Origin: a virus
Taxonomy: Duplodnaviria > Heunggongvirae > Uroviricota > Caudoviricetes
Length of the DNA: 8,021 nt
Strand: one strand, 5' to 3'
IMG/VR virus record: IMGVR_UViG_2778261358_000014
Shown piece by piece: positions 4,800 to 8,021 of this stretch (the stretch's first letter is position 1; the number at the start of each line of letters is the position of its first letter). The translations under genes were made by a program, and so were the position numbers. Under the pieces are notes generated by a model that saw only the letters and a list, made by a program, of their open reading frames with translations, made no database searches and was not told where the DNA came from.

Positions 4800-5017
4800 A
4801 ACCCCCCCTCCCCATTTTCACAATCAGCAACAAGAATATTTTTAGCGTCATTCAGCGACCGCGTGGCGGTGTATCGGATACATTCCAGGGCGAACAATGT
4901 GTATTCTTCCCGTTCTTCCTTTTGTGCAAGCCCTGCTGTGCATTCAATATCAATAAGCGCATGCATCAGCGTAGTGAGCGCGGCGGCTGCTGCGTCCGGT
5001 GTGGTTTTATTGCACAT
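4772..5017 (-). CDS. Hypothetical small protein (81 aa)
   Basis: Internal ATG at 5017 preceded by AGGAGG (6-nt spacer). It overlaps the stop of the upstream repeat-containing ORF, suggesting coupling. The ORF track's upstream extension to 5059 lacks an RBS. Confidence 0.5.
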   Translation of the reverse strand: MCNKTTPDAAAAALTTLMHALIDIECTAGLAQKEEREEYTLFALECIRYTATRSLNDAKNILVADCENGEGGLCVMIVLIP

Positions 5018-5567
5018 GGCACACCTCCTGACGAATACGGGCGGCGAATACAGCAACACAACCGGACGGGCAACGGCTACGTGCTTCGCGTTCCGTCCAG
5101 GCGGTTACGTGGATGATTTGATGTTCTGACGCGCCAAAGATGATAAAGCGCCAGAGAAAGGCGGTTTGAGAATGTACAAGGGTAGGGATAGTAGCCATGT
5201 TGGCAGCCTCCTCAGTGTGGTTAAGATAACCGCCACCGGAAACGCCAATTTCGCTGGTGGCGGACTGTACAGGGTTGGCGTAACCGGACACTGAAGAAAC
5301 CGGCGCGGATTGCTCCGCCCCCGTACAGCCCACCATTGATAAGGTGTGACTATGCGGCACAAAAAAACACGCGGGGCGCGTGTTATGCGCTTCAGTTTTG
5401 CCCAGGACGCCAATCCCGGCACCCGTTTTATGAGGTGCGCGGGAATCATAGCTATTTTCGACACTGGCGATCAACTGGTTTTTTTCTCCGATATTCAGGG
5501 CCAGAAAACGCCACACAAAGGCCGTTTGTGTGTGTACAAGGTGTGGTATATGATTTACGGCAACCAT
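5007..5567 (-). CDS. Repeat-containing open frame (186 codons) with two RBS-preceded in-frame starts (5567 and 5198); may be one protein, two paralogous small proteins, or a partly noncoding leader
   Basis: AGGAG + ATG at 5567 and AGGAGG + ATG at 5198. The paralogous N-terminal segments (M..IPxLVH[ST]QTAF[LV]WRF) differ mostly at third codon positions. An intrinsic terminator sits inside the frame at 5357-5384. The ORF track's 409-aa extension beyond 5567 is rejected. Confidence 0.3.
   Translation of the reverse strand: MVAVNHIPHLVHTQTAFVWRFLALNIGEKNQLIASVENSYDSRAPHKTGAGIGVLGKTEAHNTRPACFFVPHSHTLSMVGCTGAEQSAPVSSVSGYANPVQSATSEIGVSGGGYLNHTEEAANMATIPTLVHSQTAFLWRFIIFGASEHQIIHVTAWTEREARSRCPSGCVAVFAARIRQEVCHVQ
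5357..5384 (-). terminator. Strong intrinsic terminator on the minus strand, about 210 nt downstream of the leftward promoter
   Basis: Stem AACACGCG / CGCGTGTT (8 bp, GC-rich, 3-nt loop, plus-strand 5366-5384) followed on the minus strand by a run of seven U (plus-strand A-run 5361-5367). Confidence 0.55.
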
Positions 5568-5596
5568 AACGGCTCCTAGTTTACGTTGTTGGTTAG

Positions 5597-5638
5597 ACGC
5601 CCCGTATGTGTTCCCAGCACTGCGGGGCGTTGATTTTT
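5597..5638 (+). terminator. Hairpin plus T-run on the plus strand (terminator-like); its complement also forms a 5' leader hairpin of the leftward transcript
   Basis: Stem ACGCCCCG / CGGGGCGT (5597-5604 / 5623-5630) with an inner 5-bp helix, followed by TGATTTTTGTG. It sits 18 nt after the stop of a plus-strand ORF (5352..5579) that is antisense to the leader ORF. Confidence 0.4.
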
Positions 5639-5655
5639 GTGTAATGGCAAGTACA

Positions 5656-5704
5656 ATGGTAATTACCATGTAGGTATAGTAATGAAGGGTAATTACCATG
5701 TCAA
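5656..5704. promoter_or_regulatory. Switch region: leftward sigma70-like promoter (-35 TTGACA, 17-bp spacer, -10 TACTAT) overlapped by two palindromic operators (ATGGTAATTACCAT and GGTAATTACC)
   Basis: Minus-strand TTGACA corresponds to plus 5699-5704 and TACTAT to plus 5676-5681, with an exact 17-bp spacer. The perfect 14-bp palindrome is at 5656-5669 and a 10-bp palindrome at 5688-5697, centres 30 bp apart. A plus-strand TATAGT (5675-5680) shares the -10 region. Confidence 0.5.
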
Positions 5705-5871
5705 CACCATTAGAAAAACGTTCGCCTCCATACCAAATGCGATTACCGGAAGACTTCAGAGCGCAGCTAGAAGAAGCAGCTAAGGCCGATGGCGACACAT
5801 CTTTAGCCACTTGGATTAAACGCGTTCTCCGCAAAGAATTACAGCAACGCGGCATAGAACCCAAAGGATAA
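5698..5871 (+). CDS. Ribbon-helix-helix (Arc/MetJ/CopG-type) DNA-binding protein, 57 aa; candidate island repressor. Not in the ORF track
   Basis: Translation MSTPLEKRSPPYQMRLPEDFRAQLEEAAKADGDTSLATWIKRVLRKELQQRGIEPKG has the Arc-type pattern (beta-strand MRLPEDF, then two helices). AAGGG RBS upstream. Palindromic operators lie immediately upstream. Divergent from the replication operon. Confidence 0.65.
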   Translation: MSTPLEKRSPPYQMRLPEDFRAQLEEAAKADGDTSLATWIKRVLRKELQQRGIEPKG

Positions 5872-5928
5872 AAACTATCAGCGCCGTGGTGTGAGGTATT
5901 ACGGCGCATTGCTATGCAGGACAACACA

Positions 5929-6102
5929 ATGACCGATAAAGAATTGACCAAAACATTATCACCGGCACGGAAAAGACGGCGCAGAAAGATAGAGCATGAA
6001 TCAGAAAGATTCGCGCCATGTGCTTTTGCCCTTGAGCAATTCCTTAAAGAGTACAGGGAAAAGCGCTCATTGCAGGTATGGCAACGAACTGAACCAGACT
6101 GA
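5929..6102 (+). CDS. Hypothetical small basic protein (57 aa) downstream of the RHH gene
   Basis: ATG at 5929 preceded by AGGAC (7-nt spacer). R/K-rich stretch (SPARKRRRRK). Same transcription unit as the RHH gene, ending at the terminator at 6198. Coding status uncertain. Confidence 0.3.
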   Translation: MTDKELTKTLSPARKRRRRKIEHESERFAPCAFALEQFLKEYREKRSLQVWQRTEPD

Positions 6103-6197
6103 TTGCATTGCCCACCAGCCTGATAGCGGCTATCATCCCCGTGCTTATGTTTGGGATCACATACACATAAGGCGCAGCGGGTTAATTGTTCAGAAAG

Positions 6198-6224
6198 GCG
6201 GCTCCATATCGGGGCCGCTTTTTT
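6198..6224 (+). terminator. Rho-independent terminator between the convergent RHH unit and alpA, possibly bidirectional
   Basis: Stem GCGGCTCC / GGGGCCGC (8 bp including one G-U pair, 5-nt loop) followed by TTTTTT (6219-6224). The alpA stop is at 6251 on the opposite strand. Confidence 0.65.
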
Positions 6225-6250
6225 CGTGTTTGTCATATCTGTGATACCCG

Positions 6251-6457
6251 TTAAGCAGCCGTTCCGCGTGCTTCCTCTTCGCGTTCTTTCTGCCAGGACA
6301 ACACATCATCCTCATACCATCCGCGACGGCGTAAACCAACGCGAAAACCCTGCGGAAATTCTCCGGCGTTGATCATGCTTTGCAGCGTGCTGTCTGCCTT
6401 GATGTGGATAATTTTTTTTACTTCCTGGCGAAAGATAATTTTTCTGATTGCTTCCAT
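6251..6457 (-). CDS. alpA: AlpA/Vis-family transcriptional regulator (excisionase-like MerR-type HTH), 68 aa
   Basis: Motif ...LQSMINAGEFPQGFRVGLRRRGWYEDDVLSWQ matches the AlpA signature (FP...G.R..GW.E.DV..W). RBS AAGGT upstream of ATG 6457. Located next to a P4-type integrase, as in P4 (Vis) and CP4-57 (AlpA). Confidence 0.8.
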   Translation of the reverse strand: MEAIRKIIFRQEVKKIIHIKADSTLQSMINAGEFPQGFRVGLRRRGWYEDDVLSWQKEREEEARGTAA

Positions 6458-6534
6458 CGTGATTTACCTTGTGAATCCGGTGTATTCCGGTGACAAATAC
6501 GGTAAATCATCGGATATGGGTAAAAACAGTTCCC

Positions 6535-6562
6535 ACCGTTTTTAAACGGTATACACCGTTTT
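6535..6562. promoter_or_regulatory. ACCGTTT half-site repeats (inverted pair plus a third direct copy) upstream of alpA; candidate operator
   Basis: ACCGTTT-tt-AAACGGT at 6535-6550 and ACCGTTTTTT at 6555-6562, lying between the integrase-side terminator and the alpA start. Confidence 0.35.
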
Positions 6563-6590
6563 TTATATTGATGATTTGAAATGGAATTAT

Positions 6591-6613
6591 AAAAAAAGCG
6601 GCATTTCTGCCGC
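6591..6613 (-). terminator. Rho-independent terminator for the integrase transcript
   Basis: Hairpin GCGGCA-ttt-CTGCCGC (6598-6613) followed on the minus strand by a T7 run (plus-strand A-run 6591-6597). Confidence 0.6.
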
Positions 6614-6624
6614 TTCCAGGATTG

Positions 6625-6807
6625 TTACCGCCATTTTTTGGGCCTGCCTCCGATCTTCATAGATGCCGGACGTACGACCTTATCAATACTTACCGCCAGA
6701 TTTCTGGAAGCGCCACGGGATACCAGAAAATCTACTACCTGTTTTTTTGATGGGGCCGTCGTTCTGTCCTCCGGATCGTAGGTTGACCAAAATTCATGCT
6801 GAACCAT
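6625..6807 (-). CDS. Hypothetical small basic protein (60 aa) translationally coupled to the 3' end of the integrase
   Basis: Its ATG (6807..6805) overlaps the integrase stop TGA (6809..6807) as ATGA. The frame ends 12 nt before the terminator. The ORF track's longer version (from 6855) overlaps the integrase coding sequence. Confidence 0.3.
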   Translation of the reverse strand: MVQHEFWSTYDPEDRTTAPSKKQVVDFLVSRGASRNLAVSIDKVVRPASMKIGGRPKKWR

Positions 6808-8021
6808 CAGGGCCAGTTGCAGCCCGTCGCCGCAGCCTCGACAAATTCGCCCCACCAGCGCATCAGCACGATGCGTTTTTCTATGTAGTTGCTCCGGTTG
6901 TATGCCCGTCTAACTTCGTTGGTGTCGACGTGGGCAAGTGCCGCCTCTATTACGTCCGGCTCGAATCCTTCCTCGTTCGCTGCTGTGCTGAATATGGCGC
7001 GTAATCCATGAGACACCAGCACGCCAGCGAATCCCATACGCCGCAATGCTGCGTTAGCTGTCTGGCTGTTCATCGGCTGCTGTGGGTCTTTCAGACTTGG
7101 GAAAACGTAATTGCGGTGGTGGCTGATTGGTTTCATGGCCTCCAGCACCGCCATAGCCTGACCGGAAAGCGGGATAACGTGATCCCTGCGCATCTTCATG
7201 CGTCCGGCAGGTATCGTCCATTGCTTCGCGTCCAGGTTGATTTCATCCCACCGCGTTGATGACGCTTCGGCGGGACGGGTTACGGTCAGTAACTGCCATT
7301 CAATCAGTAATCTGGTCTGCCGTTCTGTTGCCGATACTGATAAAGCCTGCATAAGCTCGGGCAGCTGTTCGGGGCGGATTGTTGGCATATGTTTTTTTAC
7401 AGGTGAGGGAAACGCCTTACGCACATTCATAGCCGGATTGGCATCAATCAGCCCACTGTTGGCGGCGTAATCCATTACCTCATTAACGCGCTGTAAAACC
7501 CGCTTGAGTGTTTCCAGGTTGCCGCGCTCCTTGATGGGGGTAAGCACTTCAACGAACCTTCGGGCGGTGAGGGTATCTATTGGCGTGTTGCCGATGAACG
7601 GGAATACATATTTATCCAGCGAACGCCAGATGTCTTTAATCGTGTTGGGGGCCAGATTCTGGCTGATTTTCACCTGGTACCATGCCGCCGCCACATTTTC
7701 GAACGTGTTCCCTTGTCTTCGGGCCTCTGTCTCTCTTTTTTGCCTCTCGTGGTCCTGCGGGTCAGTTCCGGCACTGATTAACGTCCTGTACTCGCTACGG
7801 CGTTTTCTGGCATCAGCCAGGGAAACATCTTCAAGCGATCCAAAACTCAGCAATATTCTTTTTTTGTCCGATGGTCGGTAGTAGGAAAATCTCCAGAGTT
7901 TTGATCCAGACGGTTTGACCAGGAGAAAAAGCCCTCCGCCGTCCTGCAGGGTGTACTCCTTTTGCGCTGGTCTGGCTGCTTTGATCTGCACTGTGGTTAA
8001 TGGGTGTGTTTTTCTCGCCAT
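6807..8021 (-). CDS. int: Tyrosine site-specific integrase, P4-type, 404 aa (complete; ATG is the last three bases of the window)
   Basis: N-terminus MARKTHPLTTVQIKAARPAQKEYTLQDGGGLFLLVKPSGSKLWRFSYY is the characteristic P4-integrase N-terminal (arm-binding) motif. The C-terminus carries HGLRAIF (HxxR) and the VRRAYNRSNYIEKR region with the catalytic Tyr. Confidence 0.9.
   Translation of the reverse strand: MARKTHPLTTVQIKAARPAQKEYTLQDGGGLFLLVKPSGSKLWRFSYYRPSDKKRILLSFGSLEDVSLADARKRRSEYRTLISAGTDPQDHERQKRETEARRQGNTFENVAAAWYQVKISQNLAPNTIKDIWRSLDKYVFPFIGNTPIDTLTARRFVEVLTPIKERGNLETLKRVLQRVNEVMDYAANSGLIDANPAMNVRKAFPSPVKKHMPTIRPEQLPELMQALSVSATERQTRLLIEWQLLTVTRPAEASSTRWDEINLDAKQWTIPAGRMKMRRDHVIPLSGQAMAVLEAMKPISHHRNYVFPSLKDPQQPMNSQTANAALRRMGFAGVLVSHGLRAIFSTAANEEGFEPDVIEAALAHVDTNEVRRAYNRSNYIEKRIVLMRWWGEFVEAAATGCNWP

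Follow-up and report, generated by a model that had tools for sequence, protein, structure and literature searches.

The entry to the replication genes of this island carries strong leftward promoter signals, two ribosome-binding sites (RBS) in one frame, hairpins facing in both directions and an open reading frame (ORF) on the opposite strand, which raises the question of what kind of RNA, if any, gates the operon. The first-pass annotation had answered with two converging transcription units, the plus-strand one supplying the immunity RNA. We assign a probability of roughly 0.75 to another reading, namely, that the whole region is a P4-type RNA immunity module behind an operator-controlled promoter. 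The immunity switch is probably of a type already known (phage P4 CI, phage P1 c4), and a small antisense RNA, not described before, probably lies upstream of it.

The window, that is, the whole stretch of 8,021 nucleotides analyzed, corresponds to a satellite-like island of 8.4 kb located at tRNA-Pro/yejM in E. coli E2865. Annotation and profile matches identified int, an alpA-like gene, a RepA-like helicase gene, terS and a major capsid protein gene, and none of the P4 core genes for alpha primase, epsilon, sid, delta and psu was annotated or matched in the island. The island looks like a PICI-type or capsid-forming satellite. Our reading would place the P4 CI/P1 c4/IsrK mechanism in a small capsid- and terS-bearing satellite of Shiga-toxin-type E. 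coli.

IsrK- and C4-like RNAs ahead of the replication genes

Two Rfam families were matched on the minus strand, one behind the other. The isrK model (RF01394) was matched over positions 1 to 77 at 5438-5362 with 66 bits (gathering threshold, 50; E = 9e-13), and the C4 model (RF01695) over positions 1 to 87 at 5340-5253 with 77.6 bits (gathering threshold, 45; E = 2e-14). The predicted IsrK/seqA-like RNA (5438-5361) ends in the leftward intrinsic terminator, whose 8-bp stem (5384-5366) and seven consecutive T residues (5367-5361) were correctly described in the first-pass annotation and lie inside the significant isrK match. The C4/CI-type immunity RNA begins 21 nt 3' of this terminator, compared with a spacer of 107 nt in P4; its fold (-46.9 kcal/mol, z = -5.2) reproduced the consensus shape.

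Directly upstream of the IsrK-like RNA is a predicted promoter (TTGATC at 5474-5469, an 18-nt spacer, TATGAT at 5450-5445, minus strand), the probable equivalent of P4 PLE, with its predicted start at G5438. It matches the consensus at 9 of 12 positions, with 6 nt between its end and isrK position 1, and a -35/-10 pair stands at a constant distance from that position in all seven divergent homologues, P4 included. Judged from its sequence and position, the terminator at 5384 is the P4 t1 equivalent and forms the 3' end of the IsrK/seqA-like RNA. It would serve the promoter at 5474-5445, 77 nt upstream, and would not primarily be the end of the transcript from the promoter at 5704.

The C4 RNA contains two putative recognition elements, loop a' (UUUCUUCAGUGU, 5299-5288) and linker b' (ACGCCAA, 5281-5275). 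Sites complementary to C4 were found once upstream and once downstream of it on the common transcript, as in P4. The upstream site lies on the IsrK-like RNA just 5' of the terminator (b1, 5413-5407; a1, 5396-5390), and the downstream, seqC-like target spans 5207-5248 (b2, UUGGCGU, 5248-5242; a2, ACACUGAGGAGG, 5218-5207), all on the minus strand. The a2 element covers the icd Shine-Dalgarno sequence GAGGAGG, 8 nt before the ATG at 5198. With C4 as the probe against 5318 windows on both strands, its own antisense being set aside as a self-match, the top non-self duplex sites were a2/b2 (-37.6 kcal/mol) and a1/b1 (-34.7 kcal/mol). The background had a mean of -16.9 (standard deviation, 5.5) and its best window reached -32.3, so the margin is modest. 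Among seven homologues of differing specificity, loop a' covaried with both a targets, and b' covaried with both b targets. The Rfam model for the upstream target, c4-a1b1 (RF03163), scored 21.2 bits, under its gathering threshold of 46.7; the a1/b1 complementarity is nonetheless present. The first RBS (5575) was also considered as a C4 target and was rejected because it falls outside the top duplex sites.

The C4 RNA is on the same strand as its targets and is presumably cut from read-through transcripts. The immunity RNA would be this same-strand C4 (5340-5253) and not the plus-strand transcript to which that role had been given. The more general proposal, an RNA-based gate of the P4 kind ahead of the replication genes with the terminator at 5384 as part of it, agrees with our results. 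The C4 RNA, the 5474-5445 promoter and, further upstream, two operator palindromes and an Arc-like gene were absent from the first-pass annotation.

The first gene of the replication operon is an Icd/Kil-like gene of 63 amino acids (5007-5198, minus strand), which matched NCBIfam NF033153 (E = 1.4e-15). Its start region (window positions 5180-5212) can be aligned with the beginning of P4 kil. Small ORFs, a DUF4222 protein and the RepA-like helicase follow 3' of icd (annotation and profile matches), and no antirepressor gene was found there such as the ant of P1 immI, whose control runs through icd translation.

The upstream promoter and a candidate antisense RNA

The leftward promoter at 5704-5676 (TTGACA at 5704-5699, a 17-nt spacer, TACTAT at 5681-5676, minus strand; predicted start at about 5669) had already been recognized as near consensus. 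It matches at 10 of 12 positions and has the top promoter score in the window, in which promoter-like sites overall are not enriched (8 found versus 9.2 expected). The position of its -35 element is kept in nine related loci. Two copies of the palindrome ATGGTAATTACCAT, 30 bp apart at 5656-5669 and 5686-5699, are candidate operators, one lying over the predicted leftward start and the other between the -10 and -35 elements. In related loci with other repressor variants, these positions are occupied by a repeated motif particular to the locus.

The divergent gene at 5698-5871 (plus strand) encodes an Arc-like ribbon-helix-helix protein of 57 amino acids, the candidate repressor of the switch. 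It matched the Arc-like repressor family phrog_228 (E = 1.5e-6) and, weakly, Pfam Arc and NCBIfam YlcI/YnfO; a search of its profile against PDB sequences gave nothing meaningful (best E, 0.11). The gene has 166 relatives in IMG/VR, and the promoter scan placed a candidate promoter for it at TTGATT (5630-5635) and TACAAT (5652-5657). The 5704 promoter appears to be a separate, operator-controlled promoter facing this divergent repressor gene, and it would be the counterpart of P4's upstream PLL promoter. A minus-strand ORF at 5568-6236 was rejected as a gene, being antisense to the conserved Arc-like gene and absent in the Pectobacterium locus L075. That locus was the one useful result of a contig scan with TTGGTTAGAMGCCCYG, in which almost all matches were chance matches from unrelated phyla.

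The leftward transcript from 5704 would reach an AGGAG RBS and the ATG at 5567, which open an eta/'Ash'-like ORF of 186 codons (5007-5567, minus strand). Without a change of frame, this ORF spans the IsrK-like RNA, the C4 RNA and, nested at its end, the Icd-like gene. Both starts, the ATG at 5567 and that at 5198 with the second RBS, are present as first noted, and they share one frame.

Opposite the leader of this ORF lies a conserved plus-strand structure. Its terminator stem spans 5596-5631, and the T-rich tract behind it extends to 5638; folding, which had been suggested as a check for both terminators and gave the 8-bp stem on the leftward side, returned -24.9 kcal/mol (z = -4.0) here. 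In the alignment, 97.4% of the stem cells were paired and 7 of 12 pairs had changed on both sides, a covariation score reached by none of 500 shuffles. The homologues (n = 51) contained 76 G.U and 0 A.C cells, indicating that the structure forms on the plus strand, and the T-run is present on that strand only. The hairpin and T-run proposed earlier are therefore real, but a single plus-strand structure had been counted twice, once as a leader hairpin and once as a terminator of the opposite strand.

Such a terminator might act as an insulator only, stopping stray antisense transcription into the repressor promoter without any discrete RNA being made. The gene arrangement would suit this role, all genes to the left of the hairpin being on the minus strand, as would the weakness of the nearest plus-strand -35 element (TTGTGT at 5526-5531, 3 to 4 of 6 positions). 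We nevertheless consider it fairly unlikely. In 18 of 21 sequence clusters, a -10-like hexamer, TAnnnT, ends at a fixed 36 to 38 nt before the GGTTAGA motif and hairpin, even where the start codon is offset differently; here it is TATGAT (5549-5554). A second stem-loop (stem-loop 1, 5562-5594), with the anti-Shine-Dalgarno sequence CUCCU in its loop, is likewise biased to the plus strand. Its stability was higher on that strand in 17 of 17 clusters, and in 13 of the 17 it presents the anti-Shine-Dalgarno sequence. In 44 of 57 sequences its closing helix includes G.U pairs; folded from the other strand, these positions would be C.A mismatches.

The elements combine into a candidate cis-antisense RNA of about 78 nt (5561-5638, plus strand), which has its own candidate promoter and is made up of stem-loop 1 and the intrinsic terminator. 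The RBS and AUG at which the 5567 ORF begins are complementary to this RNA. For the second start at 5198, the duplex energy was -19.2 kcal/mol (rank 192 of 796 windows), indicating no special complementarity. Of the pairing proposed for a plus-strand RNA, that with the leader at the first start thus probably holds, and that with the second start does not. A permissive Rfam scan of 5530-5680 gave no family for the hairpin region, and literature searches found no description of the candidate.

We see even odds that these features define an undescribed family of cis-antisense RNAs of about 78 nt, associated with Arc-like and YlcI/YnfO-type cassettes in enterobacterial satellites. Its members would have their own -10 element, a stem-loop with an anti-Shine-Dalgarno sequence and a terminator, and would oppose the RBS and start of the first leftward gene. 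In this island the RNA would be added to P4-type immunity, so that a single operon would have two successive RNA gates, and the hairpin would also be a site where switch and cargo modules are joined by recombination. If real, the RNA would represent an unrecognized RNA layer at the main switch of many enterobacterial satellites.

Cis-antisense RNAs opposite early-gene starts are found in temperate phages, namely, sar in the Arc/Mnt immI region of P22 and oop in lambda. The candidate resembles them in size (about 70 to 80 nt), in having its own promoter in or near the 5' end of the target, in ending in an intrinsic terminator, in its complementarity to the RBS and in its association with a ribbon-helix-helix repressor switch. 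It has no sequence or Rfam relationship to sar or oop, and differs from both in targeting the gene that heads the leftward operon of a satellite and in being a predicted RNA.

Predicted operation and known systems

All functional steps of the switch are transferred by analogy from P4, P1 or Gifsy-1, the P4 and IsrK mechanisms being taken as summarized in PMC10111431 and PMC4825925. The internal promoter (5474-5445) would give rise to the 77-nt IsrK/seqA-like RNA ending at 5384-5361. A fraction of its transcripts would pass the terminator and be processed to C4, as in P4, P1 and Gifsy-1 IsrK. Pairing of C4 with a2/b2 would block icd translation and lead to premature termination ahead of the replication genes. 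Pairing with a1/b1 would strengthen termination at 5384-5361 and limit the synthesis of C4 itself, as was reportedly found for P4 t1 by Briani in 2000. The Arc-like protein, bound to the two ATGGTAATTACCAT palindromes, would keep the 5704-5676 promoter off. After derepression, ribosomes starting at AUG 5567 may translate through the RNA module, and such translation would override the terminator and the C4 block, allowing the replication operon to be expressed. As a candidate second layer, the antisense RNA (5561-5638) may mask the RBS and AUG at 5567 and silence leaky transcripts. The module has a pairing specificity of its own, and the proposed mechanism predicts which elements would be mutually immune and by what means the island silences its replication genes.

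The gate had been proposed to be analogous to that of P4 but differently built. By sequence comparison, it is instead homologous to P4 and built alike. The order of elements on the single strand is identical, with Rfam isrK and then C4 at the corresponding places (isrK scored 60.8 bits at the P4 seqA position), and SfV has both in the same order. Also shared with P4 are a promoter-like sequence directly upstream of the seqA-like RNA, targets flanking the RNA with the downstream one over the kil/icd ribosome-binding site, alignable Icd/Kil starts, replication genes downstream and a long ORF passing in frame through the RNA genes (in P4, eta over kil).

The two systems differ in specificity (a' of the ACUGAAG type and b' ACGCCAA here; a' UUCACAGG and b' UUCUCAC in P4) and in the replication protein, a RepA-like helicase here and alpha primase in P4. 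Unlike P4 eta, the long ORF is preceded by an AGGAG RBS of its own, has an icd-derived N terminus and is uncoupled from the alpA/vis homologue; the divergent Arc-like operon and a terminator separate the alpA-like gene (6251-6457) from the module. In a further difference from P4, the upstream promoter is under a divergent Arc-like repressor cassette and is probably faced by an antisense RNA.

The region also resembles P1/P7 immI. Shared are a C4-family RNA in which two recognition elements are single stranded, a target upstream as well as one on the RBS of icd, and a small Icd-like gene in first position. It differs from immI in the lack of ant, in an upstream target that scores below the c4-a1b1 threshold and carries an intrinsic terminator, and in the long ORF overlapping the RNAs.

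Control might instead follow the logic of IsrK in Gifsy-1 of Salmonella, where short IsrK switches on the translation of a longer, read-through isoform from which STnc1160, the counterpart of C4, is also processed (PMC4825925). The abundant short RNA (5438-5362) would then have C4 or the read-through transcript as its trans target, open the structure hiding the icd RBS and activate the downstream genes. The match to the isrK model is full length, and both systems combine a short RNA ending at a terminator with a longer isoform that reads through and carries a C4-like RNA. Moreover, the short IsrK-like RNA could titrate C4, since its a1/b1 sites are complementary to C4. However, an Icd/Kil homologue and replication genes follow here, as in P4, and not the orf45-anrP antirepressor pair of Gifsy-1; the nested eta/kil-like frame is also a P4 feature. 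We therefore regard activation of this kind as improbable. A further difference from Gifsy-1 is the additional regulated promoter and ORF start upstream. The IsrK-type and P4-type models are not mutually exclusive, and because the short IsrK of Gifsy-1 activates rather than represses, control here may be of either sign.

Origin of the long ORF and of the plus-strand frame

The 186-codon ORF matched phrog_29966 from end to end (E = 6e-110) and Pfam Phage_ASH at nucleotides 5450-5169 (E = 3e-17), and the minus-strand fragment 5346-5567 alone had no Pfam or NCBIfam match. The sense frame is open across the module in P4 and SfV as well. Comparison with related islands indicated a chimeric origin, the first 28 or so codons being icd-derived. 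A 360-bp 'insert' lies between icd 5' repeats that are 81% identical to each other, and a 98%-identical island lacks it. Versions of the switch without C4 are carried by the O145:H28 strains RM12581 and RM13514 and by O157:H7 strains, at 98% and 82 to 88% identity, respectively. With a recombinant piece of icd as its 5' end, the ORF may owe its translation from AUG 5567 to an accident of recombination and not to selection for an override.

The insert could mean that an isrK-C4-icd cassette entered an island whose promoter had driven icd directly, and that the region is now a decaying scar with disused RNAs and a pseudogene as its long ORF. PGAP does call the ORF a pseudogene, and C4 was found in only 15 of 80 related switch loci (within about 1.2 kb of the left flank), so the C4 module is dispensable for the switch. 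Decay is very unlikely, however, given that the promoter, the terminator, the C4 fold and both targets are intact and mutually complementary, and that the ORF retains its full-length family match. The fused module also occurs at 96 to 98% identity beside differing repressor cassettes, and at least 80% of the length of window positions 4990-5900 is present in 69 complete genomes. PGAP probably gives this label because a protein model was drawn across what is an RNA region. If the region is a functional P4-type module, the labels 'Ash family protein' and 'Icd-like pseudogene' would largely denote RNA genes, or an ORF meant for translation through them.

The plus-strand ORF of 75 to 77 codons (start at 5346 or 5352, end at 5579) is present as described, and its strand has a weak promoter-like site at 5200-5227. 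We judged that the ORF is not a gene. It has no family in Pfam or NCBIfam and is interrupted by stops in the P4 and SfV equivalents, and related islands that lack isrK/C4 and keep the hairpin have nothing corresponding to the 5' two-thirds of the ORF (5346-5483). The hairpin covaries among homologues, and the ORF is not conserved. The converging-unit proposal, in which RNA from a unit comprising an RBS, the ATG at 5352, this ORF and the terminator at 5597-5638 pairs with the leader and the second-start copy to gate read-through, retains the real and conserved terminator but is hardly credible, as the conserved -10 element puts the plus-strand start at about 5561 and not 5340, and the gate is explained by the same-strand C4 and the targets that covary with it. 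The overlap of about 200 bp claimed for the two units is likewise unsupported, because the plus-strand ORF is unconserved and 5346-5483 is without counterpart in the related islands. The plus-strand unit is likely to be about 78 nt long and not to reach the terminator at 5384. The stretch encoding this candidate antisense RNA was matched in about 1157 of 5426 complete E. coli genomes.

Homology to the P4 immunity region

The Rfam scan identified two RNA genes on the minus strand, isrK at 5438-5362 (66 bits, E 9e-13) and the C4 antisense RNA at 5340-5253 (77.6 bits, E 2e-14), both above the gathering score. The leftward intrinsic terminator described in the first-pass annotation is real (stem 5384-5366, seven T at 5367-5361) and lies within the isrK match. 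In the genome of phage P4, isrK matched at seqA/terminator and C4 at the CI RNA, again in that order, and in phage SfV isrK was likewise followed by C4 inside the annotated "immunity region." ATG 5198 opens an Icd-like gene (NF033153, E 1.4e-15), and the start region of P4 kil could be aligned with its start. The same RNA pair in the same order, together with this alignment, indicates that the module is homologous to the P4 immunity region, beyond the "analogous but differently built" gate first proposed. The P4 intrinsic terminator t1, which adjoins seqA, was reportedly found by Briani et al. in 2000 to be CI dependent and to restrict CI synthesis. In P4, premature termination is caused by pairing of CI RNA with seqA and seqC (PMC4825925). 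The first-pass annotation had named the right family, P4-type RNA immunity, but assigned the mechanism to the wrong RNA, overlooking the same-strand C4 as well as the internal promoter, operators and repressor. At its core, the finding adds another member to the P4 CI/P1 c4/IsrK immunity family, which earlier work had already recorded in Gram-negative PICIs (PMC10111431).

The recognition elements of C4 are the loop of hairpin 2, a' (UUUCUUCAGUGU, 5299-5288), complementary to a1 and a2, and the linker, b' (ACGCCAA, 5281-5275), complementary to b1 and b2. On the same minus strand, b1 (5413-5407) and a1 (5396-5390) are located just 5' of the terminator, and b2 (5248-5242) is followed by a2 (5218-5207), which overlies the icd Shine-Dalgarno sequence. 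Among 5318 duplex windows on both strands, the two target regions were the best non-self partners of C4 (-37.6 and -34.7 kcal/mol); the next best reached -32.3 kcal/mol, and the background had a mean of -16.9 kcal/mol (sd 5.5). Covariation was compared in seven homologues (the window, P4, SfV and the related loci L131, L133, L134 and L135). In all seven, changes in the a' loop were matched at both a targets, with elements such as ACUGAAG/ACUGAGG in the window, UUCACAGG in P4, GAUCAAGG in SfV, GUCAAAGG in L131 and GUUAUCGG in L133; in P4 and L134 the b' linker likewise varied in step with the two b targets. Such co-variation is the classical signature of immunity specificity.

Leftward promoters and the long open frame

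The leftward promoter TTGACA-17-TACTAT (5704-5676) was confirmed and, at 10/12, is the top-scoring promoter match of the window, where promoter-like sites as a class showed no enrichment. A -35/-10 pair ending 6 nt before isrK position 1 was present in 7/7 homologues. From this conserved position, the internal promoter TTGATC(5474)-18-TATGAT(5445), on the minus strand with a predicted start at G5438, is probably the equivalent of P4 PLE. The terminator at 5384 would therefore end a 77-nt RNA from G5438, and not mainly the leader from the 5704 promoter as had been assumed.

The two leftward starts reported earlier, ATG 5567 with AGGAG and ATG 5198 with a second ribosome binding site (RBS), are both present and share one frame. 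The open reading frame (ORF) from ATG 5567 comprises 186 codons and stays open across both RNAs into icd; P4 and SfV keep the equivalent frame open as well. Its Pfam Phage_ASH match covers exactly nt 5450-5169, and its phrog_29966 match spans the full length. This arrangement over icd mirrors the nested eta/kil genes of P4, where termination is prevented when eta is translated on transcripts from the late promoter upstream (PMC10111431). PGAP called two minus-strand pseudogenes at 5229-5567 and 5721-6236, one an "ash family protein" and the other a second "Icd-like" gene, which look like artefacts of the RNA genes and the long open frame. The Phage_ASH match coincides exactly with the isrK and C4 region, and ORF 5721-6236 is a frame that stays open antisense to the conserved Arc-like operon.

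The stretch 5484-6224 shares 98% identity with the O145:H28 island L004, in which the same promoter, hairpin and RBS lead into a complete Icd-like gene, without isrK or C4. The window carries an extra 360 bp bounded by 81%-identical icd 5' repeats (5145-5181 and 5505-5541), indicating that the long ORF took its first ~28 codons from icd. The fused module (5000-5640) was found at 96-98% identity beside different repressor cassettes (loci L005 and L010), and at least 80% of the stretch 4990-5900 was present in 69 complete genomes. C4 was detected in 15 of 80 loci with the Arc-like gene, the comparison covering ~1.2 kb to the left of each.

Plus-strand hairpin and a candidate antisense RNA

The "leader hairpin" and "plus-strand terminator" proposed as two elements are one and the same, a plus-strand hairpin with a T-run at 5596-5638. 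It was upheld both by folding (-24.9 kcal/mol, z -4.0) and by alignment of 51 distinct homologues, in which 97.4% of stem cells were paired and 7 of the 12 stem pairs had changed on both sides (52 cells). None of 500 shuffles reached the observed covariation score, and slid controls were far lower. The stem contained 76 G.U cells and no A.C cells, indicating that the hairpin belongs to a plus-strand RNA; the T-run follows on the plus strand only.

In 18 of 21 clusters, a TAnnnT hexamer ended 36-38 nt upstream of an invariant motif, GGTTAGA, and this spacing held with the start codon either 10 or 4 nt from the hexamer. In the codon beneath the hexamer, the amino acid varied and the third-position U was kept. 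The intervening ~35 nt fold as a hairpin that was more stable on the plus strand in 17/17 clusters (mean, -10.1 versus -4.6 kcal/mol), with an anti-Shine-Dalgarno sequence in its loop in 13 of the 17 and G.U pairs in its closing helix in 44 of 57 sequences. From the conserved terminator hairpin, the fixed hexamer and the plus-biased upstream hairpin, we predict a ~78-nt antisense RNA (5561-5638, plus strand) that would cover the RBS and start codon (AUG) of the first leftward ORF. This candidate matched no Rfam family, no paper describing it was found in the literature searched, and within the finding it alone may be new. The suggestion that the plus-strand RNA pairs with the copy at the second start (5198) was not borne out, as nothing special was found there.

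The proposed plus-strand unit does contain an ORF (5346/5352-5579) besides the hairpin and T-run, but this 75-codon frame was rejected as a gene, having no family match and being interrupted by stops in the P4 and SfV equivalents. Its 5' two-thirds (5346-5483) are absent from L004-type islands.

Probable repressor switch and the surrounding island

The 5704 promoter is overlapped by a pair of ATGGTAATTACCAT palindromes, at 5656-5669 and 5686-5699, next to a divergent plus-strand gene for a 57-aa Arc-like protein (5698-5871, phrog_228). Loci with other repressor variants have their own repeated motif at equivalent positions. Judged from sequence, the right half would function as a classical operator switch. 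A third, degenerate motif copy (76% identical, 5643-5659) is 12 nt away from the first and overlaps the rightward promoter at its candidate -10. The Arc-like gene is followed by a 62-aa gene of unknown function (5914-6102, plus strand, phrog_21027). Beyond it, the strongest terminator-like hairpin of the window (14 pairs, 6192-6224, plus strand) separates the Arc-like operon from the end of the alpA-like gene converging on it, and may therefore act in both directions.

Recombination breakpoints were found on both sides of the plus-strand hairpin (5589 and 5638-5643), which seems to be a joint for the exchange of repressor cassettes and leftward cargo. Homology between related islands also broke beside the hairpin at L005 positions 3063 and 3810. 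Several loci carry tandem pairs of hairpin-plus-switch cassettes. The loci behind these observations, besides the window and L005, are L145, L187, L194, L201, L203 and L205. Pectobacterium sp. B2J-2 (locus L075, 971-1599) shares the hairpin and the -35 GTCAA, and has an Arc-like gene that is 58% identical; the first leftward gene there is an unrelated 106-aa ORF, indicating that the switch travels with the hairpin independently of Icd.

The window is 99.9% identical to Escherichia coli E2865 (NZ_AP018808.1), where the island of ~8.4 kb lies between tRNA-Pro/yejM and yejO. Its leftward order is integrase, small ORF, AlpA-like HTH protein, the studied region, Icd-like gene, small ORFs, DUF4222 protein, RepA-like helicase, small terminase subunit and major capsid protein. 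This content, unlike that of P4, points to a PICI-like or capsid-forming satellite. At the island end (1-1713), the only genes are those for the small terminase subunit and for a major-capsid-like protein of 308 aa, whose match is limited to the C-terminal part of PHROG head-protein profiles. The annotation shows neither a portal nor a protease gene up to the flanking yejO pseudogene (L001), where the island ends, and the island may represent a capsid-forming satellite in minimal or decayed form. No Rfam family, the int-alpA motif among them, matched the int-alpA intergenic region (6458-6806) with an E limit of 1. On the minus strand, a terminator-like hairpin is located at 6617-6594, directly after a 76-aa ORF (6625-6855).
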